NCBI GenBank assembly: GCA_017387685.1
Contig: JAFOEU010000055.1
Coordinates: 89,989-153,988, forward strand
Length of the DNA stretch: 64,000 nucleotides
Direction: 5' to 3'
Source: Clostridia bacterium
Lineage (GTDB): Bacteria > Bacillota > Clostridia > Oscillospirales > CAG-272
In this document: one piece after another, positions 5,273 to 55,188 of the stretch
How the letters are laid out: every line of letters begins with the position of its first letter
Numbering within the stretch: position 1 is the stretch's first letter
Notes under the pieces: generated by a model
Database searches by the model: none
What the model was told of the DNA's origin: nothing
The model's input: the letters and a program-made list of their open reading frames with translations, nothing else
Made by a program: the position numbers and the translations under genes

Positions 5273-5575
5273 GTGCAGAGTTAAGAGTGCAGAGTGCAGA
5301 GTTGAGGTGGATTTTCAAGCTCCGCTTGAAAATCATTGGTGCTTTAATTTTGTGCGGTGCTGATGCAATTTACTGCTGTGCTGAAATACAGAGAATAAAA
5401 TAAAAATCTCGGATATTTCGAAGCTTCGCTTCGGATATCCGAGATTTTTTAATTTGTTATGACTTTGGCTATGTGAAATTTAATCAGCACATCACAAAAT
5501 TATTAATATGGAATTTTCGCCACGGCGAAAATTTCCCTTCAACTCTGCACTCTGCACTCTTAACTCTGCACTTGA
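5273..5575. repeat. complete foldback element filling the serA / lipoprotein convergent spacer
   Basis: 5273-5305 is the exact reverse complement of 5539-5571 (33 bp of GTGCAGA-type heptamers). Junction hairpins lie at 5310-5335 and 5511-5535. A nested inverted repeat surrounds the central terminator. Confidence 0.9.
5402..5450. terminator. bidirectional intrinsic terminator
   Basis: AAAAATCTCGGATATTTCGAAGC-TTCG-CTTCGGATATCCGAGATTTTTT, with an A-run and a T-run flanking a long stem. Confidence 0.85.
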
Positions 5576-8344: not shown

Positions 8345-8402
8345 GCATAATCACGTTCCGCCCACGGAACACTTTTCGGGGGTTGCACCGCCTGCGGGCG
8401 GC

Positions 8403-8517
8403 GCGCGATATGCCTTCGGCACGATATATCCGCTTCGCGGATACGATATACCTGAAGGCACGATATATTTCGCAGAAGCGAAATGTTAAGGTAAATTTCC
8501 GCCAAGGCGGAAATTTT
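8403..8517 (+). repeat. repeat arm variant: ACGATATAT word + mini-hairpin units ending in TTAAGGTAAATTTCCGCC-AA-GGCGGAAATTTT
   Basis: The units are GCCTTCGGC, CCGCTTCGCGG, CCTGAAGGC and TTCGCAGAAGCGAA, each preceded by a CGATATA word. The junction hairpin lies at 8486-8517. Confidence 0.8.
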
Positions 8518-8607: not shown

Positions 8608-10263
8608 ATGAAAAAATATACCGTTGGAATAGATTTCGGAACGCTTTCGGGCAGAGCTGTGCTCGTTGACGTTATGACGGGCGAGGAGTGCGCAAGCGTC
8701 GTGATGGACTACCCTCACGCCGTCATCGACAGCATCCTTCCCGCGAGCGGTGAGGTGCTCCCGATCAATTGGGCACTCGAAGACCCGCGCGATTATCTCG
8801 CAGTTCTCGAATTTCTTTTCCCCGCGCTCTGCCGCGAGGCGGGCATCGAAAAGGAGCAGATCGTCGGTGTCGGCATCGACTTCACCTGCTGTACGATCCT
8901 TCCGATCAAAAAAGACGGCACCGCGCTCGTTTCTCTGCCCGAGTTTGAGCAGAATAAGCACGCCTACGTCAAGCTCTGGAAGCATCACGCCTCCCAGCCG
9001 TGGGCGGACCGTATGAACGAGGTTGCCGCAGAGCGAGGCGAGACCTTCGTCAATTATTTTGGCGGTAAGATATCGAGCGAATGGCTCTTCCCGAAGCTTC
9101 TCCAAACCGCAAAGGAAGCCCCCGAGGTCATAGAGGCGGCTGATTACTATATCGAGGCGGGAGATTGGCTCAATTTCTTGCTCACCGGCGTGCAGAAGCG
9201 CGGATATCTTTTCGCGTCCTACAAGGCGGAGTATCTGCCGGACGTCGGATACCCCTCCGACGAATATCTCGCGGCGGTCGATCCCGAGCTACCCGAGCTC
9301 GCGCACCGTCTGCTTGACGCCCCCATCGCGCAGATGGGCGAGTGCGTCGGTCGCGTTACCAAAGAGGCGGCTGAAAGATTCGGTCTTGCCGAGGGTACTG
9401 CCGTTGCCGCGTCGATCCCCGATGCCCACGTTGCCGCCCCCGCTGTTGGACTGACCAAGCCCGGCGATATTTACGGCATTTTCGGCACTTCCAATTGCTA
9501 TTTTACACTTGCTGATATTTACAGAGATATTGGCGGAATCTGCGGATACGTTCCCGACGGTCTTATGCCGGGTTACTTCGGCGTTGAAGCGGGACTTTGC
9601 GCCGTAGGCGACCATTTTGCGTGGGTTGTGGACAATCTTGCAACCGCAGAGGACAAGGCGGAAGCCGAGCAGCTCGGAATTCCCGTCATTCAGCTCCTCG
9701 TCCGCCGCGCGGCAAAGAAAAAGCCGGGCGAAACCGGACTTCTCGCCCTCGACTGGTGGAACGGAAACCGAAACATCCTCGTTGACGGCAATCTGACGGG
9801 ACTTTTGATCGGTATGACGCTCCGCACCAAGACCGATGATATCCTCCGCGCCCTTATTGAGGCGACCGCGTTTGCGACCAAGGTCATCATCGACCGTATG
9901 GAGGAATGCGGAATGAAGATCGACAGCCTCATCGCCGCGGGCGGAATCGCGCGCAAGGACGCATTTACGATGCAGGTCTACTCCGACGTCCTCGGCATCC
10001 CGATCAATGTAATTTCCTCAAAACAGGCTCCCGCACTCGGCAGTGCTATCTACGCCGCCGTTGCCGCAGGCGAATACCCCGACATTTTTGCCGCCTCCGA
10101 CGCTATGAAGAGCCCGATCTACAGCAGTTATACCCCCAATAAAGAGAACGAAAAGGTCTACTCCGCACTCTACCGCGAATACCTCACCCTTCACGACTAT
10201 TTCGGTCGCGGCGGGAACGACGTTATGAAGCGTTTGCTTAAGATCTCGCAGGGGGAGATTTAA
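8608..10263 (+). CDS. araB: FGGY-family sugar kinase, most likely L-ribulokinase
   Basis: The N-terminus GIDFGTLSGRAVLV and the 551-aa length match ribulokinases as I remember them. Confidence 0.75.
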   Translation: MKKYTVGIDFGTLSGRAVLVDVMTGEECASVVMDYPHAVIDSILPASGEVLPINWALEDPRDYLAVLEFLFPALCREAGIEKEQIVGVGIDFTCCTILPIKKDGTALVSLPEFEQNKHAYVKLWKHHASQPWADRMNEVAAERGETFVNYFGGKISSEWLFPKLLQTAKEAPEVIEAADYYIEAGDWLNFLLTGVQKRGYLFASYKAEYLPDVGYPSDEYLAAVDPELPELAHRLLDAPIAQMGECVGRVTKEAAERFGLAEGTAVAASIPDAHVAAPAVGLTKPGDIYGIFGTSNCYFTLADIYRDIGGICGYVPDGLMPGYFGVEAGLCAVGDHFAWVVDNLATAEDKAEAEQLGIPVIQLLVRRAAKKKPGETGLLALDWWNGNRNILVDGNLTGLLIGMTLRTKTDDILRALIEATAFATKVIIDRMEECGMKIDSLIAAGGIARKDAFTMQVYSDVLGIPINVISSKQAPALGSAIYAAVAAGEYPDIFAASDAMKSPIYSSYTPNKENEKVYSALYREYLTLHDYFGRGGNDVMKRLLKISQGEI

Positions 10264-10325
10264 GTGGCTAGTGACTAGTGGCTAGTGACTAGTGAAGGTG
10301 AATTTTCGCCAAAGGCGAAAATTTT
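10264..10325 (+). repeat. repeat arm: GTGGCTA/GTGACTA heptamers + AAGGTGAATTTTCGCC-AAA-GGCGAAAATTTT
   Basis: The arm starts on the nucleotide after the araB stop. It has five heptamers and then the junction hairpin. Confidence 0.85.
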
Positions 10326-10422
10326 CCGAATTAATTAATATACAAGTGCGAACATAGGCGCACTTGTATAGTACGAGTTACTATTTAACAAACGCATACA
10401 CCACCTTTCAAGGAGGATCATA

Positions 10423-13583: not shown

Positions 13584-13741
13584 AGAGTGCAGAATGCAGA
13601 GTTAAGGAGAATTTCCTTGCCTGCGGCTGCGGAAATTTTCAATTCTGATATAAACTCAACTCAAACTTTATAATAAAATTATTTTTCGCTTCAGCGAAAA
13701 ATTACCGTAACTCTGCACTCTGCACTCTGCATTCTGCACTG
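13573..13741. repeat. complete foldback element (GTGCAGA arms) between cysE and the GDPD gene
   Basis: Left heptamers lie at 13573-13607 with a hairpin to 13640. The right hairpin is at 13681-13703 and CTCTGCA heptamers at 13711-13741. Confidence 0.85.
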
Positions 13742-23025: not shown

Positions 23026-23150
23026 TCGGCTTCGCCGAGTGATAATCTCGCTTCGCGAGAGTGATAATCCGCCTGCGGCGGAGTGATAATTTCCGCTGCG
23101 CGGAAAATAAAGGTGAATTTTCTCGCCTTCGGCTCAAAAATTATTAAATT
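23026..23150 (+). repeat. repeat arm: 3x AGTGATAAT + mini-hairpin units, then AATAAAGGTGAATTTT and a degenerate hairpin
   Basis: TCGGCTTCGCCGA GTGATAAT CTCGCTTCGCGAG AGTGATAAT CCGCCTGCGGCGG AGTGATAAT TTCCGCTGCGCGGAA. Confidence 0.8.
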
Positions 23151-25514: not shown

Positions 25515-25738
25515 ACTCCTTCCGAACAGCCGCCGGGGCGGCGTCTGTTCGAAGCGCGGAGGGAGTTTCGCCGTCTGCGGACGGCGACTTAAGGCTCTGC
25601 CTTAAGAAACCGCAAGTTTTTGAAAAAACTTGACTAAAACTTTCCCGCTATCTTTATTTCGCCGCAGGCGAATTATCACTCTCGCGAAGCGAGATTATAA
25701 CTCTGCCGTAGGCAGATTATCACTCGCGCTCTGCGCGA
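25515..25738 (-). repeat. composite repeat (reverse orientation) ending in ATTATCACT + mini-hairpin units
   Basis: ACTCCTTCCGAA...TTCGAAGCGC..GGGAGTTTCG-CCGTCTGCGGACGG-CGACTTAAGG...AAAACTTTCCCGCT, then the array at 25657-25738. The mazF ORF ends inside the array. Confidence 0.8.
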
Positions 25739-26156
25739 CAACCCCCGCCTCCGCCACAGCCGCAGGCTGTACCTCCACTCCCTCCCCATACGCTCCTGCG
25801 GGAGGCAGCACTATACCAAAGCTCACCGCGATCGCGTTGTTGACTCTATCCATCATCTCATCGTCGAGGTGTCCCATCCGCTCGCGCAGGCGGCGTTTGT
25901 CGAGCGTTCTGATCTGCTCGAGCAGTATCACCGAATCCCTCGCCAGTCCCGCGCGCTCGGCGTATATGTCGATATGTGTGGGCAGGCGCGTTTTGCTCAT
26001 TCGCGATGTAATTGCCGCCGCTATCACGGTCGGACTGTATTTATTCCCAACGTCGTTTTGTATTATCAGCACGGGCCGAAGTCCGCCCTGCTCCGAGCCG
26101 ACGACGGGCGAAAGATCTGCATAATATATATCCCCTCTGCGTATCTGCGAGTTCAT
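25695..26156 (-). CDS. mazF: MazF/EndoA-type endoribonuclease toxin with a ~35-aa C-terminal extension
   Basis: [44 protein letters not shown]...LPTHIDI...[17 protein letters not shown] is very close to B. subtilis EndoA as I remember it. The tail [37 protein letters not shown] has no counterpart there. Confidence 0.85.
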
Positions 26157-27149: not shown

Positions 27150-27208
27150 GTGCAGAGTTCAGAGTGCAGAATGCAGAGTTAAGGTAAATTTTCGCGTTGC
27201 GAAAATTA
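27150..27208 (+). repeat. repeat arm: GTGCAGA heptamers + TTAAGGTAAATTTTCGC-GTT-GCGAAAATT
   Basis: The arm starts on the nucleotide after the stop codon. The AATTTTGTGCGGTGCTGAT module also seen at 5350 follows it. Confidence 0.85.
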
Positions 27209-27275
27209 TTTCTGCGATAATTTTGTGCGGTGCTGATAAGATTTTGTGCTGAATTGAAATTGGAAGAGTAAATTG

Positions 27276-34430: not shown

Positions 34431-34645
34431 AGGGGATAATAGAGATAAGTTGCTCCCGAAGGGAGCAGTGATAATCTCGCTTCGCGAGAGTGATAATCCG
34501 CCTTTCGGCGGAGTGATAATTTGCCTGCGGCAAAGTAAAGGTAAATTTCCTCGCTTTGCTCGGAAATTATCGAATGATTTATTTACTTTCAGCGAAGCTG
34601 AAATTATCACTCTCGCGAAGCGAGATCATCACTGCCCCTCGGGCA
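34431..34645. repeat. foldback element with AGTGATAAT + mini-hairpin arms (about 4 left units, 2 right units)
   Basis: The left arm is 34431-34535. The junction hairpin AAGGTAAATTTCCTCGC-TTTG-CTCGGAAATT is at 34536-34568. The right arm TTTCAGCGAAGCTGAAATTATCACTCTCGCGAAGCGAGATCATCACT is at 34587-34645. Confidence 0.8.
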
Positions 34646-42548: not shown

Positions 42549-43058
42549 CGAGATCGGGTTAATCTCGCTTCGCTCGAGTTATAATCCGCCTTCGGCGGAG
42601 TGATAATCGCCTTGCGGCGAGTGATAATTTGCCTTCGGCAAAATGAAGGTAGATTTTCGCCGAGGCGAAAATCTTTGATTTAAATAATAAGCGATGTTAC
42701 AAATAAGCCTTCCCCGGCGGGGAAGGTGGCAGCCCTTGCGGCTGCCGGATGAGGGGATCGCCGTCTGTACCGCAGACACGACAAGCGTATATGCATTTTC
42801 ATATAATTGAAAATTTCCGCCTCGGCGGAAATTCACCTTTATTTTTCGCGCAGCGAAAATTATCATTCTCGCGAAGCGAGATTATCATTTTGCCGAAGGC
42901 AGATTATCACTCGCCGCAAGGCGATTATCACTCCGCCGAAGGCGGATTATCACTCGAGCAAAGCGAGATTATCACTCCGCCGAAGGCGGATTATCACTCG
43001 AGCGAAGCGAGATTATCACTCCGCCGAAGGCGGACCATCACTCGAGCGTCAGCGAGAT
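42549..43058. repeat. large foldback element inside the ABC transporter operon (3 left units, structured core, 9 right units)
   Basis: Left words start at 42577, 42599 and 42620, with the junction hairpin at 42645-42673. The right junction hairpin is at 42809-42841. Right words ATTATCAYT start at 42859, 42881, 42903, 42924, 42946, 42968, 42990, 43012 and 43034. Confidence 0.9.
42686..42790 (+). ncRNA. conserved structured motif, copy 1 (function and functional strand unknown)
   Basis: H1 is CCTTCCCC-GGC-GGGGAAGG (42708-42726). H2 is GGCAGCC-CTTGC-GGCTGCC (42728-42746). GGATGAGGGGATCGCC follows. H3 is GTCTG-TACCG-CAGAC (42763-42777). Confidence 0.4.
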
Positions 43059-43074
43059 AGAAAGGACTTCAAAA

Positions 43075-43743
43075 ATGAGCATTCAACTAAAAAACGTATC
43101 ATACAGCTACCGCGGCAAGTACCAGACCGTTCGCGCGGTGAATTCGGTCAGCTTTGATTTTGACGAGGGCAAGGTCTACGCCGTAATCGGCAAATCCGGT
43201 TCGGGAAAGACCACTCTCCTCTCGCTTATGGCGGGGCTTGATCTGCCGACCGAGGGTGATGTGATCGTTGACGGAAAATCGACCCGCAAATGGGATCGAA
43301 ACCGTATGCGCCGCGAGGCTGTCTCGGTAATTTATCAGAATTATAACCTTTTTCCGCTTTTGAGCGTAATTGAAAATATCCGCTACCCGCTTGATCTGCG
43401 CAAGGTAAAGCGCGCGAAAGCCGACGAGATTGCACGCCGTATGCGCGAGCGCGTCGAGCTTTCCGAGTCATACGACGACCGCCTCCCCGCGCATCTTTCG
43501 GGCGGTGAGCAACAGCGCGTCGCAATCGCACGCTCCCTCGCGCAGGGCAGTAAGATCATACTCGCAGACGAGCCGACGGGTAATCTTGACACCAAAAACA
43601 CCGAAAATATCGTAAATATCCTCAAAAAGCTTGCCCACGAGGACGGTGCGACCGTTATTATCGTCACACACGATCTCGCCGTCGCCGAAAAAGCCGACGT
43701 GGTTCTCCGTATGAGCGACGGTGAACTTGTTGACAAAGCTTGA
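43075..43743 (+). CDS. ABC transporter ATP-binding protein (MacB/LolD-type)
   Basis: Walker A GKSGSGKTT, signature LSGGEQQRVAIARSL, Walker B IILADEPT. Confidence 0.9.
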   Translation: MSIQLKNVSYSYRGKYQTVRAVNSVSFDFDEGKVYAVIGKSGSGKTTLLSLMAGLDLPTEGDVIVDGKSTRKWDRNRMRREAVSVIYQNYNLFPLLSVIENIRYPLDLRKVKRAKADEIARRMRERVELSESYDDRLPAHLSGGEQQRVAIARSLAQGSKIILADEPTGNLDTKNTENIVNILKKLAHEDGATVIIVTHDLAVAEKADVVLRMSDGELVDKA

Positions 43744-46359: not shown

Positions 46360-46364
46360 TTAAA

Positions 46365-46432
46365 GTTACTAGTTGCTAGTTATTAGTTACTAGTTAAAGG
46401 TAAATTTCCGCCCCGATGGGGCGGAAATTTTT
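46365..46432 (+). repeat. repeat arm: GTTRCTA heptamers + TTAAAGGTAAATTTCCGCCCC-GAT-GGGGCGGAAATTTTT
   Basis: The arm begins 5 nt after the rbr stop. It matches the reverse-oriented arm at 48087-48153 at about 42 of 48 positions. Confidence 0.85.
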
Positions 46433-48088: not shown

Positions 48089-48153
48089 AAAATCCGCTCG
48101 AAAATCGAGCGGATTTTTACCTTTAACCAGCAACTAACAACTAGCAACTAGCA
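48087..48153 (-). repeat. repeat arm (reverse orientation): hairpin/terminator AAAAAATCCGCTCG-AAAA-CGAGCGGATTTTT + ACCTTTAACC + AACTAGC-type heptamers
   Basis: The arm ends 7 nt before the stop of the minus-strand transporter gene. The hairpin also serves as terminator for the + gene ending at 48088. Confidence 0.85.
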
Positions 48154-48160
48154 ACTTTTA

Positions 48161-49299: not shown

Positions 49300-49455
49300 G
49301 ACAAGACAGAGTCGCAGCTTGCCGCAGGCAAGTGTGAACTTCTTGAAAAAGTTCGATCAAAACTTACCGCTGCTGTTGTCTTTTATTTGATTGAAAATTT
49401 CCGAGCAAAGCGAGGAAATTCTCCTTAACTCTGCACTCTGCATTCTGCACTCTGT
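49300..49455 (-). repeat. composite repeat (reverse orientation) ending in CTCTGCA heptamers
   Basis: CTTGCCGCAGGCAAG...GAACTTCTTGAAAAAGTTC...AAAACTTACCGCTGCTGTTGTCTTTTATTTGATTGAAAATTTCCGAGC-AAAG-CGAGGAAATTCTCCTTAA, followed by the heptamers. Confidence 0.8.
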
Positions 49456-49473
49456 ATTTTGCCTCCTCAAATA

Positions 49474-51517: not shown

Positions 51518-52357
51518 TTATACCTTCTTGGTCTCGCCGGGCGCGATCGAGGAGATCTCTCCGTTATAGAAGTACCAGAGCGTGCGCGCGGTGGGGTTCA
51601 TGACGATCGAGCCGTCGACCGAGTAAACGAGGCTTTCGAAGTCCTTGACGTATTCGAAAATTTCGATGTTGGTAGCGTACCAGATATCCTCTCTGCCGCC
51701 CATAAACTCTGCGAATTCCTCGATGACGTTCCAGTTGTCGTCGCCCTCGAACTCGTAGGTGTGACCCCAGACGTAGAAGAGCTTTGCGGGGTCCTTGGTG
51801 ACCTTCATATCGGCAAACTTACGGGCGTATTCCATAAGCTTCGGGTCGGTATGCTTGCAGGTTGCGGGCAGACGGAGCCAGTCGCGCGGGATGTTGAAGC
51901 TGCCGGTGACGGCGGTGGTGCGCGCGTAGAGAATGCCGCAAGCGCGGAGAACCTCTACCACGGTATCGTTGTGAGTTCCGTAAGGATAAGCCATACCGCG
52001 GATGATCTTGCCGAAGAGAGATTCGAGGTTTTCGCGGTCCTTGACGATCTCGTAAGCGATGCGCTCTGCGGGCATGTGCTCGAGGCGGGGATGAGTCAGC
52101 GCGTGAACGGCAACCTCGTGACCGCCCTTCGAATAAAGCTCTGCGACTTGTTTTTCGTTCATGGGGCGATGGATCTGACCGGGCGCGTAAACCTTGCCCT
52201 CGGGAGCAAATCTGCCCGAATTGAGGTTGAATGTACCCTTAAGTCCGTTTTTGTCAAGAATTTCGATGAACTTAATGTCCTGATCGACGCCGTCGTCGTA
52301 GCTGAAGGTCAGCGCTTTCGCAACGCCGCCGGGATATCTCATAAATAACTGTGCCAT
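51518..52357 (-). CDS. polysaccharide deacetylase (NodB/CE4) family protein
   Basis: FSYDDG and HALTHP motifs. ORF 51518..52534 is trimmed to the ATG at 52357, which has an AAAGGAGG RBS. The upstream part of the ORF is repeat array. Confidence 0.75.
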   Translation of the reverse strand: MAQLFMRYPGGVAKALTFSYDDGVDQDIKFIEILDKNGLKGTFNLNSGRFAPEGKVYAPGQIHRPMNEKQVAELYSKGGHEVAVHALTHPRLEHMPAERIAYEIVKDRENLESLFGKIIRGMAYPYGTHNDTVVEVLRACGILYARTTAVTGSFNIPRDWLRLPATCKHTDPKLMEYARKFADMKVTKDPAKLFYVWGHTYEFEGDDNWNVIEEFAEFMGGREDIWYATNIEIFEYVKDFESLVYSVDGSIVMNPTARTLWYFYNGEISSIAPGETKKV

Positions 52358-52588
52358 AGTATGACCTCCTTTGAGTGTTGAGATAATTGTATCACAAAAC
52401 GGAGGAAAATGCAATAGGGTAGGGGAAATATCTCGCGAAGCGAGAGTTATAATCTCGCTTACGCTCGAGTGATGATCCGCCTTGCGGCGGAGTGATAATC
52501 TCGCTTCGCTCGAGTGATAATTTGCCTGCGGCAAAGTTAAGGTGGATTTTCGCCGAGGCGAAAATCTCGATTTTTATTAAAATAATTT

Positions 52589-52695
52589 GCAAGTCTGTCA
52601 TATCTGCGGTACAGACTTCGATCTCCTCATCCACCACTGCCGTGGTCCCCCTTCCCCGCTGGGGAAGGCTGATTTTGAACATCGCTTATCATTTC
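52589..52695 (-). ncRNA. conserved structured motif, copy 3 (inverted relative to copies 1 and 2)
   Basis: The reverse complement reads GCCTTCCCC-AGC-GGGGAAGG, then GACCAC-GGCA-GTGGT, then GGATGAGGAGATCGAA, then GTCTGT...ACAGAC. H2 has a different sequence but still pairs. Confidence 0.4.
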
Positions 52696-52824
52696 TAAAC
52701 TTCGTTAAGTACGCTAATCATATCAAGAAAATGATAAAAACAAAATATATTTACAACTATTTTGCTAATTATGAGTAAGGAAATATAATTATCGAGTCTT
52801 TCTGCGGTGCTATATCACTATAAC

Positions 52825-52916
52825 ATATGTTCGCAGTTGCTATATAAGCCTTCCCCAGCGGGGAAGGTGGCAGCCCTTGGGGCTGACGGATGAGGAGACC
52901 GAAGTCTGTACTAGAC
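52825..52916 (+). ncRNA. conserved structured motif, copy 2
   Basis: CCTTCCCC-AGC-GGGGAAGG (52849-52867), GGCAGCC-CTTGG-GGCTGAC, GGATGAGGAGACCGAA, GTCT-GTACT-AGAC. Confidence 0.4.
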
Positions 52917-53147
52917 GAGGAATAGAGGCACTTATTATTTAATAAATATCGAAGATTTTCGCCGAGGCGAAAATCAACCTTAACTTTGCCGCAGGCAAAT
53001 TATCACTCGAGCGAAGCGAGATTATCACTCCGCCGAAGGCGGATTATCACTCTCGCGTAAGCAAGATTATCACTCCGCCGCAAGGCGGATTATCACTCTC
53101 GCGTAAGCGAGATTATCACTCCGCCGCAAGGCGGATTATCACTAAAT

Positions 53148-53180
53148 AAAATCAACCGAGCCTCGGCTCGGTTGATTTTA
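53148..53180 (-). terminator. intrinsic terminator of ftsH
   Basis: AAAATCAACCGAGCC-TCGG-CTCGGTTGATTTT. Confidence 0.8.
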
Positions 53181-53181
53181 T

Positions 53182-55188
<2,007 letters not shown>

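Follow-up and report, generated by a model that had tools for sequence, protein, structure and literature searches.

A mosaic of palindromic repeats between genes of a Clostridia bacterium and the association of its two-hairpin motif with DUF559 endonuclease genes

Short extragenic palindromes of high copy number are known mainly from Proteobacteria as repetitive extragenic palindromes (REP), with their bacterial interspersed mosaic element (BIME) and REPIN arrangements, and are accompanied there by RAYT, an IS200-like Y1 HUH transposase. Pneumococcal BOX elements are modular intergenic repeats in which a variable-number module lies between end modules. To our knowledge, BOX has no sequence relationship to the repeats described below and no nuclease partner, and no function has been assigned to DUF559, a very common bacterial protein family. 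Published work groups DUF559 together with Vsr and the homing endonuclease I-Bth0305I (PMC3424549), while Gut-1 (RF01706) has been described as a candidate non-coding RNA (ncRNA) from human gut metagenomes (Weinberg et al. 2010, PMC2864571). Here, we analyzed a 720-bp intergenic unit at positions 52431-53143 of a 64,000-nucleotide stretch of the Clostridia bacterium assembly GCA_017387685.1 (contig JAFOEU010000055.1), hereafter the window. The unit comprises, in this order, a left hairpin array, a junction hairpin, a reversed copy of a two-hairpin motif, an AT-rich center, a forward copy of the motif, a second junction hairpin and a right hairpin array. We show that it is a mosaic of three modules, namely the arrays, the junction hairpins and the motif, which occur separately too, and that the motif is packed around genes for DUF559 endonucleases (Vsr fold, PD-(D/E)xK) whatever its orientation. 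The broader reading that we favor, the case for which we regard as evenly balanced, is that of a non-coding, non-autonomous mosaic of repetitive extragenic palindromes, a Clostridial counterpart of REP/BIME/REPIN that is possibly serviced by DUF559.

All the parts listed by the first-pass annotation are present in the order it gave, with coordinates off by a few bases at most, according to direct reading of the sequence, a repeat finder and Tandem Repeats Finder. The core of the unit is a head-to-head doublet of a ~60-nt two-hairpin repeat, with a first hairpin (P1) of fixed sequence, a second one (P2) of free sequence but near-perfect stems and a single-stranded GGATGAGGAG. Alignment of the three copies present in the window gives P1 as CCTTCCCC-NGC-GGGGAAGG, followed by P2, the conserved GGATGAGGAG and a lineage-specific tail. 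Copy 3, a class 1 motif at 52617-52674 on the minus strand (73.2 bits with our covariance model R1; two-hairpin fold), is made up of P1 CCTTCCCC-AGC-GGGGAAGG, P2 ACCAC-GGCA-GTGGT and GGATGAGGAG. Copy 2, a class 2 motif at 52843-52903 on the plus strand (63.3 bits; fold z = -4.3), has an identical P1 followed by P2 GGCAGCC-CTTG-GGGCTGAC and GGATGAGGAG, and the third copy (42702-42762, 56.4 bits) belongs to a sister element. The P2 sequence is replaced wholesale between copies (CAGCC/GGCTG vs CCAC/GTGG). The P1 hairpin occurs at three sites of the window vs 0.03 expected, and model R1, built from 79 motif cores, recovers only the three known copies there. The two halves of the unit are inverted relative to each other, with 89% complementarity across 102 nt of their inner parts and two further stretches (27 nt and 24 nt) that cover the motif.

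In a pattern scan covering one genome per species, the motif was found in at least 120 loci. Among the matches listed, all are metagenome-assembled genomes (MAGs) of Clostridia from human and ruminant gut, including Oscillospiraceae, Acutalibacteraceae, Ruminococcus, Faecousia, Eubacteriales and unclassified Clostridia; the motif is also present on two contigs of a viral collection. Many copies lie at contig ends, as assembly-breaking repeats should, and 143 of 168 copies fall outside crude open reading frames (ORFs). Convergent doublets with discrete spacer classes dominate (58), followed by divergent doublets of the type seen in the window (15) and tandem pairs (5). The 5′ flank reads WWAG (TAAG, TTAG, ATAG and similar), with G at position -1 in at least 90% of copies. 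The orientation of the motif is independent of the adjacent gene, the head-to-tail ratio being 2.1 at 3′ ends and 2.0 at 5′ ends, which argues against the motif acting through host transcripts. One locus (L073, 1801-2738; L-numbers label loci or contigs fetched from other assemblies) carries three convergent doublets in tandem with a ~377-bp period, reminiscent of BIME-like amplification.

The motif is thus an intergenic repeat of high copy number in many gut Clostridia, and compensatory changes with hardly any wobble pairs maintain its hairpins. The 124 distinct P2 sequences contain 614 Watson-Crick, 6 G-U and 1 A-C pairs, and stems of at least 5 bp are found in 74% of them vs 12% of shuffles; these were counted by script, because RNAalifold applied to the core missed P2, whose classes pair in different registers. 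P1 shows the compensatory variants CCTTCTCC/GGAGAAGG (at least 24 instances), CCTTCCCT/AGGGAAGG and CCCTCCCC/GGGGAGGG. Loops of P2 are of the G..A type in 62 of 101 cases and never of the T..C type (0 cases). Two classes of P2 junction were distinguished, namely GGGGGACC...GGTGG and GGTGGCA...TGACGG; the idea that classes 1 and 2 are distinct left and right ends was rejected, since they pair at random in doublets.

A rival explanation takes the two halves for structured ncRNAs, each transcribed by one of two divergent promoters in the center and acting in trans, for example as a protein sponge via the array linkers; we regard it as unlikely. The near absence of G-U pairs would be unusual for so diverse a functional RNA family, and the doublets elsewhere, which are mostly convergent and have unrelated DNA beyond their heads, offer no room for a dedicated promoter. 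Covariation supports no structure beyond P1 and P2: when a larger fold that would connect the leader with the core and the tail was sought, RNAalifold returned P1 alone besides a weak G-U-rich helix lacking covariation, and it gave no covariation-supported structure for the tail of copy 3. Rfam 15 contains no family that matches the motif. A hammerhead or other known ribozyme or riboswitch was likewise rejected, in view of the missing Rfam support and of a GAA/CGAA that is not invariant, and a sigma-54 promoter inside P2 (TGGCAC-N5-TTGC) was put down to coincidence, as it is present in few variants only.

The genes surrounding the motif also speak for the favored repeat reading. When the 905 ORFs within 2.5 kb of motif copies were clustered, one recurrent family emerged (13 loci; 14 of 123 fetched loci by tblastn), and no cluster of Y1 transposases was present among these 905 ORFs. 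This neighbor is a ~122-aa protein of the DUF559 family (PF04480, E = 9e-27), whose nearest solved structures are 3HRL (E = 5e-15) and 3R3P (E = 2e-3), the latter being the catalytic domain of the mobile-intron homing endonuclease I-Bth0305I. At 7 or more loci, two motif copies enclose the DUF559 gene exactly, in compact ~500-bp units. Such a succession of motif, gene and inverted motif is wedged between host genes in L029 (763-1264), L027 (2501-2989), L004 (4994-5582), L074 (1367-1926), L084 (777-1375) and L020 (5870-6373), and has the appearance of a doublet in its gene-bearing form. In L047, a doublet has the leaders of the window unit and 91% identity to copy 2; its DUF559 gene lies 44 nt from the motif core and takes the place of the spacer, junction hairpin and array seen in the window.

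We also performed the reciprocal test: metagenome contigs were searched with an alignment of the DUF559 subfamily, and the 80 loci obtained were then scored with the motif model. A motif (at least 20 bits) is located within 150 bp of the gene in 43 of these 80 loci, on both sides in 12, and its density falls from 2.9/kb within 150 bp to 0.9/kb at 150-300 bp and ~0 beyond 450 bp. The motif has no preferred strand with respect to the gene (upstream 15 '+' and 13 '-'; downstream 14 '+' and 13 '-'). This random orientation, together with the presence of both convergent and divergent flanking pairs, indicates that the DUF559 gene does not have the motif as its leader or trailer RNA; a cis-regulatory leader of the gene was rejected because of the random orientation. 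Searches of the literature on DUF559 with repeats, mobile elements and palindromes, and on REP-like elements in Clostridia, yielded no prior description, so the association of DUF559 with repeats appears to be undescribed so far.

The outermost modules of the unit are the hairpin arrays. The left one (52431-52535, plus strand) contains five GC-rich mini-hairpins (TCTCGCGAAGCGAGA, TCGCTTACGCTCGAG, CCGCCTTGCGGCGG, TCGCTTCGCTCGAG and TTTGCCTGCGGCAAA) separated by four linkers of the GAGTGATAATC type; the four left units reported earlier were linkers, a count that holds for these and falls one short for the hairpins. The right array (52985-53143, plus strand; fold z = -4.8) has the seven units with a 22-23-bp period that had been announced, i.e. 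seven linkers GATTATCACTC and seven hairpins, in order TTTGCCGCAGGCAAA, CTCGAGCGAAGCGAGA, CCGCCGAAGGCGG, TCTCGCGTAAGCAAGA, CCGCCGCAAGGCGG, TCTCGCGTAAGCGAGA and CCGCCGCAAGGCGG. Tandem Repeats Finder assigns it a period of 23 with 6.4 copies, and a two-unit super-period of 46 fits better (91% matches). Allowing at most one mismatch, the linker GATTATCACTC occurs 30 times in the window vs 1.15 expected; the conserved linkers measure 10-11 nt. The stems of the hairpins change from unit to unit and the linker, GAGUGAUAAUC on the opposite strand, stays. On the GATTATCACTC strand, loops are G..A in 29 of 33 hairpins (GAA, GCA, GCAA, GTAA) and T..C in two, so that the hairpin loops have a strand polarity. 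Many units contain GCGAAGC, the classic sequence of an extra-stable DNA mini-hairpin with a GNA loop. A scan of viral contigs for the array gave no match.

Rfam returned no match in the whole window at gathering thresholds and, at E-values up to 10, only sub-threshold Gut-1 matches plus miRNA noise from the long inverted repeat. With permissive thresholds, every array matches Gut-1 on the strand where the linker reads GAGUGAUAAUC, at 20-36 bits vs a threshold of 50. These eight sub-threshold matches all lie on arrays and have the same strand sense; the best one covers 53062-53144 on the minus strand (36.1 bits, E = 3e-5) and the remaining ones score 20-32.5 bits, including that of the left array (52467-52548, plus strand, 20 bits). 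The arrays hence fall short of the 50 bits that define Gut-1 by score and have its tandem hairpins with covarying stems and a conserved linker. A true Gut-1 match (57.6 bits) was found at L105 1395-1585, where it forms one of the two arms of a small inverted element composed of hairpin arrays, with further hairpins in its center; this element has the linker ATTTCAC/GTGAAAT and resembles a unit at 34.5 kb of the window. Since the true Gut-1 is the arm of an inverted element, the window arrays are the same type of structure with another linker, and Gut-1, too, belongs to a mosaic inverted repeat.

Several properties of the arrays speak for the ncRNA explanation. The G..A loops, which are GNA/GNRA-like, sit on the outward-reading strand in both halves, in line with the divergent transcription suggested by the first-pass annotation; this strand of the arrays folds as clean beads on a string with G-free linkers; and Gut-1, the nearest described family, was itself proposed as an ncRNA (PMC2864571). 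Conversely, the orientation of arrays relative to the motif varies between loci (L001 vs L093). The unit hairpins are perfect Watson-Crick palindromes on both strands, and the lower folding energy on the Gut-1 strand is due to the G/U-rich linker, which can pair in alternative ways, and not to the units. A G-U asymmetry of the arrays as a sign of an inward-strand RNA was rejected accordingly, its source being these linker pairings. Mimicry of a Shine-Dalgarno or anti-Shine-Dalgarno sequence by the linker or by the AAGGTG box next to the junction hairpins was also discarded, because it is not conserved in the linkers of other genomes. Tests of the 720-bp unit as a HutP/TRAP-type attenuator were negative, GAG recurring every 22-23 nt and not every 7, as were tests of the array as a CRISPR or type III toxin-antitoxin array, the constant part being a short linker and the variable part a hairpin. 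There is no ORF after the junction hairpin of the unit and no cas or toxN-like gene adjacent to it.

Divergent transcription, on which the ncRNA explanation depends, would have to start in the center of the unit (52696-52824), whose GC content is 26% vs 51.5% window-wide. Its borders are leader B (52675-52725, minus strand), a ~50-nt sequence beside the head of copy 3 that is kept among related genomes, and leader A (52798-52842, plus strand; CTATATCACTATAAC-N4-TGTTCGCAGTTGCTATATAAG), which lies beside the head of copy 2 and is conserved between genomes. Between them, a variable AT-rich middle (52726-52797) holds a promoter-like site, TTGCTA-16-TATAAT (52762-52789, plus strand), which faces outward, as an ncRNA promoter should; a weaker one lies on the minus strand. 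Comparison with homologous divergent doublets from seven genomes indicates that only ~45-55 nt beside each head are conserved. The promoter-like site falls within the non-conserved middle, although L048 keeps a similar -10 stretch (TATTATTATCGA), and divergent transcription is thus left without comparative support, which counts against the ncRNA explanation. An inverton is not indicated either: no recombinase gene adjoins the unit, and the seven homologous doublets do not share the promoter-like site. A degraded DUF559 gene inside the center was rejected, as tblastn gave no signal. On the far side of each motif copy, the tail and an AT-rich spacer lead to the junction hairpins, at 52567-52616 for copy 3 (minus strand: ...GAAGTCTGTACCGCAGATATGACAGACTTGCAAATTATTTTAATAAAAATCGA; tail kept in L039, L040, L048 and L085) and at 52904-52953 for copy 2 (plus strand).

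Junction hairpins have a constant layout, with an (A/G)AGGT(G/A) box, an AATTTYCSCC-loop-GGSGRAAATT hairpin and a T-rich tail. The left one (52545-52566, plus strand) consists of GATTTTCGCC-GA-GGCGAAAATC (= GATTTTCGCCGAGGCGAAAATC), preceded by the box GTTAAGGTG (52536-52544, plus strand) and followed by TCGATTTTTATT; its 9-bp stem has a folding energy of -8.4 kcal/mol as DNA (z = -3.4). The right one (52954-52975, minus strand; box AAGGTT) is, on the plus strand, the same 22-mer, and a third exact site at 42652-42673 bears out the earlier claim of an identical hairpin in both arms and near 42650. Read on the minus strand, the right hairpin is terminator-like and followed by TTCGATATTTATT; a consensus terminator scan flagged the left hairpin and not the right. 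Because the two hairpins of the unit are identical on the same strand, GA loop included, they are direct copies of a near-palindrome and not true reverse complements. A scan with the 22-mer gave 7 strand matches vs 0.01 expected, namely two per site (one on each strand) and one match with three mismatches at 5512-5533. The box also precedes junction-type hairpins at 1132, 5304, 8488, 10295, 27181, 42646, 46397, 48123 (minus strand) and 42839 (minus strand). Such hairpins are present in ~15 further intergenic modules of the window, beside arrays of 7-nt units at ~10 other sites, and a junction-hairpin module is present in ~16 of the 21 intergenic gaps that measure 100 nt or more.

The heptad units read (U/G)AG-N4, with GCAGAGT at 5.3, 5.55, 13.7, 27.2 and 49.4 kb, AGTTGCT at 1.1, 46.4 and 48.1 kb and AGTGRCT at 10.3 kb. 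Heptad arms of 4-6 copies lie at 1093-1164, 5273-5334, 5512-5575, 10263-10323 and 13650-13740, and further ones at 27150-27207, 46364-46429, 48095-48156 and 49390-49462. These arms are at the heart of another explanation, transcription punctuation, according to which arms read inward are 3′ untranslated region (UTR) repeats followed by an intrinsic terminator, perhaps with a repeat-binding regulator that tunes termination; the arms would end and stabilize flanking transcripts and insulate neighbors, and the inverted layout would amount to two back-to-back terminators. In eight of the nine heptad arms the array begins right at the stop of a co-oriented gene, and the AAGGTG box, junction hairpin and T-run lie at the distal end. 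The right arm of the 720-bp unit follows ftsH and the left arm at 42.5 kb follows an FtsX gene, the inward strand is that of the Gut-1 model, and the left junction hairpin is terminator-like for transcription arriving from the left and was flagged by a consensus terminator scan. HutP binds XAG motifs beside the hut terminator with a spacing equal to that of the heptads (PMC2425495), a likeness that may serve as a lead only.

We nevertheless hold transcription punctuation to be rather improbable for the unit as a whole. Only 3 of 9 hairpin-type arms follow a co-oriented gene; the left arm of the unit faces the 5′ end and promoter of a deacetylase gene, and the two arms at 34.5 kb likewise point to 5′ ends. 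The ftsH gene has a strong hairpin of its own. The stem of the junction hairpin has only 4 G-C pairs next to 5 A-T pairs, with an interrupted T-run. Punctuation would also leave the central motif and its DUF559 link unexplained.

Other modules of this kind in the window deserve mention. The 5.27-5.58 kb unit is a complete inverted pair between convergent genes. Three GCAGAGT-type arms (5335-5365, 5480-5511 on the minus strand, and 27208-27240) share the sequence past the hairpin (AATTTTGTGCGGTGCTGAT / AATTTTGTGATGTGCTGAT), which suggests another conserved module. The divergent intergenic gap at 8400-8515 contains a second array of the hairpin type; its linker differs (ACGATATA), and AAGGTA and a junction-type hairpin come after it. 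A short palindrome, CAAGTGCGAACAT...CGCACTTG, comes after the 10.3-kb junction hairpin (10330-10375) and resembles two head-to-head leader A segments devoid of motif cores.

The sister element (42555-43062, plus strand) occupies the gap between the stop codon of an FtsX permease gene (42547) and the start codon of an ABC ATPase gene (43075). It displays a left array of 4 hairpins, the junction hairpin at 42652-42673, leader B, the forward motif at 42702-42762, a tail, a second junction hairpin (42813-42835) and a right array of 10 hairpins. Its arrays (42560-42639 and 42847-43058) contain 3 and 9 linkers, respectively, so that the 3 vs 9 units reported previously are correct as linkers and one too few per arm as hairpins. 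Arrays of the same kind are found at 23029-23104, at 25668-25729 and at 34466-34521 with 34602-34640; the last two form the 34.5-kb unit, which has two arms and one junction-type hairpin and is devoid of the motif. The array at 25.7 kb touches an ORF for a PemK/MazF-type toxin (25695-26156, minus strand), in which PF02452 covers residues 6-113 and a ~40-aa C-terminal extension runs into the array; the array may have displaced the original stop codon of the toxin.

The same modules are combined differently in other genomes. A motif doublet with both junction hairpins and no arrays is found in L085, and a doublet with the left junction hairpin only, again devoid of arrays, in L040. L118 lacks the left array and otherwise displays a junction hairpin, a reversed motif, a center, a forward motif, a junction hairpin and a right array, the latter with a different linker (AAYATTAACTY). 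Arrays with yet other linkers adjoin motif doublets in L093 (AACATCATT) and L098 (TGCGATAWA), and a fixed polarity of the array relative to the motif was rejected on comparing L001 with L093, and by L098. The initial description of one large inverted element with asymmetric arms is therefore retained as regards the inverted composite and its asymmetry; it is revised as regards a single element, the unit being a mosaic of three separable repeat families.

That the arrays are duplex DNA binding sites, either iteron- or centromere-like or comparable to the transposase sites at the ends of Tn7 or Mu, would fit the 22-23-bp period (about two helical turns), the AT-rich center, the conservation of the linker next to variable inter-linker sequence and the unequal arms, as at Tn7 ends. 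We judge this highly improbable, since the inter-linker part is always a near-perfect palindrome with a one-strand loop polarity that a duplex site would not need, ~16 such modules per 64 kb of chromosome exclude an origin or a centromere, and no transposase or partition gene is associated with the modules.

The assembly of the unit was also considered. The junction between the deacetylase gene and the array is reproduced over 147 nt in three Logan assemblies, which then break inside the array, and the 34.5-kb mini-element is reproduced exactly in an independent ENA assembly. Related architectures in L118, L085 and L040 lend further support, and the counts of 5 and 7 units come from the present assembly alone. 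A chimeric or collapsed repeat join would be in keeping with the breaking of same-species short-read assemblies inside arrays, and is scarcely plausible given the junction recovered from three samples, the exact mini-element and the comparable ordered architectures in L118, L085, L039 and L048. An exact-protein look-up of FtsH returned no record.

Array unit number differs between samples, as the first-pass annotation had proposed from the unequal arms. Deacetylase and ABC-ATPase contigs from other samples all end inside arrays, and for those with an identical ABC-ATPase protein the end always falls within the right arm of the 42.8-kb element. L211, the longest of them, has 5 hairpins vs 10 in the window, a comparison that rests on short-read assemblies, and point changes distinguish four other contigs. 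A simple k-mer collapse is unlikely, since the units that L211 lacks are distinct in sequence. At positions 1-45, where this contig begins, the sequence upstream of the tail at the 42.7-kb site reads TGTTGTTCGTGCAGTACAGAC... and not the motif core. In the window, the 10-hairpin right arm ends 13 nt ahead of the ABC ATPase start codon (43058-43077), which leaves no room for a promoter between them; the gene must be transcribed through the element.

The gene neighborhood of the 720-bp unit agrees with the earlier assignment. The left flank is a polysaccharide deacetylase gene (PF01522) starting at 52357 and the right flank is ftsH (M41 and AAA domains), ending at 53182, whose own terminator-like hairpin (53140-53187, minus strand) abuts the last array unit and lies outside the element. 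A LOR-family protein and a sulfatase are further neighbors.

Taken together, high intergenic copy number, inverted doublets, few wobble pairs, independence of orientation and a nested nuclease gene led us to the reading of the unit as a DNA-level repeat. The following observations weigh against it. DUF559 genes are flanked about equally by convergent (6) and divergent (5) pairs, unlike a simple insertion sequence with terminal inverted repeats. No DUF559 gene is present within the 64-kb window, and literature searches gave no DUF559 protein acting on hairpins or repeats. The 34.5-, 42.5- and 52.4-kb units show no target-site duplication at their ends. The sole locus with flanking-gene synteny to the window, L066 (86.6% identity), loses synteny at the 34.5-kb element and provides no clean pair of filled and empty orthologous sites; mobility is consequently something that we infer. 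Loop polarity implies selection on one strand, which fits RNA as well as single-stranded DNA, and the heptad arms behind co-oriented stop codons indicate a transcript role (3′ UTR plus terminator) for at least that module.

With these reservations, a mechanism can be proposed for the DNA-level repeat. The motif would be a recognition or cleavage structure for a DUF559 nuclease encoded elsewhere in the genome, which might read it as a folded single strand or as an extruded cruciform and could spread or homogenize copies via nick-induced repair or copying, as RAYT does for REP and REPINs. The window unit may be a non-autonomous doublet that gained hairpin arrays outside its junction hairpins; slipped-strand mispairing or unequal recombination could lengthen and shorten the arrays by two units (45-46 bp) at a time, and the junction hairpins, terminator-like when read inward, would insulate the element and its neighbors from read-through. 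The more specific claim that motif and DUF559 form an unrecognized repeat-nuclease partnership, a Firmicute analogue of REP-RAYT in which a ~120-aa Vsr-fold enzyme reads a folded strand or cruciform, is put forward tentatively, and we consider it doubtful at present.

If true, such a partnership would give the large orphan family DUF559 a first biological role, and the orphan Gut-1 'RNA' would have to be reclassified as an arm of mosaic DNA repeats that differ in unit number from strain to strain. The link between DUF559 and the repeats provides a testable hypothesis, namely a structure-specific nuclease servicing a palindromic repeat family, and Gut-1 is placed in a genomic context as the arm of inverted elements with a variable number of hairpins. 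In practical terms, these repeats fill most intergenic gaps in one abundant uncultured group of gut Clostridia and break short-read assemblies, which matters for MAG assembly and strain typing, and unit-number variation directly upstream of genes such as that of the ABC ATPase (43075) could change expression between strains.

How does the unit compare with the known systems? With Gut-1, the arrays share at least three tandem GC-rich hairpins, a conserved purine-rich linker (GUGAAAU in Gut-1, GAGUGAUAAUC here) and gut bacteria as hosts; they differ in score (20-36 bits vs 50), in the linker sequence, in a unit count of 4-10 where Gut-1 has a fixed three, in a loop polarity that favors the strand opposite the Rfam model, and in that Gut-1 was described as a free-standing ncRNA and not as part of an inverted mosaic. 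Pneumococcal BOX, compared by description only, is alike in its variable-number module, its strong predicted secondary structure and its location near gene ends, and lacks an inverted doublet of a two-hairpin core. Like miniature inverted-repeat transposable elements (MITEs), the unit has terminal inverted repeats (102 nt with 89% complementarity, plus the motif arms), but its gene-bearing relatives carry only DUF559 and not a known transposase. Vsr-fold homing endonucleases (I-Bth0305I, 3R3P) similarly are small, selfish-looking nuclease genes in or beside copies of a specific sequence; here, however, there is no intron or intein context, and the putative target is a dispersed repeat instead of one conserved gene site.

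The comparison with REP/BIME/REPIN is the closest one. The gene is DUF559 (Vsr / PD-(D/E)xK fold) here and RAYT there, the repeat is larger here (two hairpins and a conserved single-stranded 3′ segment), the host is a member of the Clostridia, mobility is a matter of inference, and convergent and divergent pairs both flank the gene. As two REP-defining features, RAYT and GTAG, are missing, we do not file the unit as a member of REP/BIME/REPIN, though these remain the closest to it in working. Both are short high-copy extragenic palindromes that occur mostly as inverted doublets and sometimes in alternating clusters (L073 here). Both comprise two sequence classes, corresponding to Y and Z in REP, and have a conserved short sequence 5′ of the hairpin (WWAG here, GTAG in REP). 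In both, a small nuclease gene is itself flanked by repeats, most copies of which are devoid of the gene.

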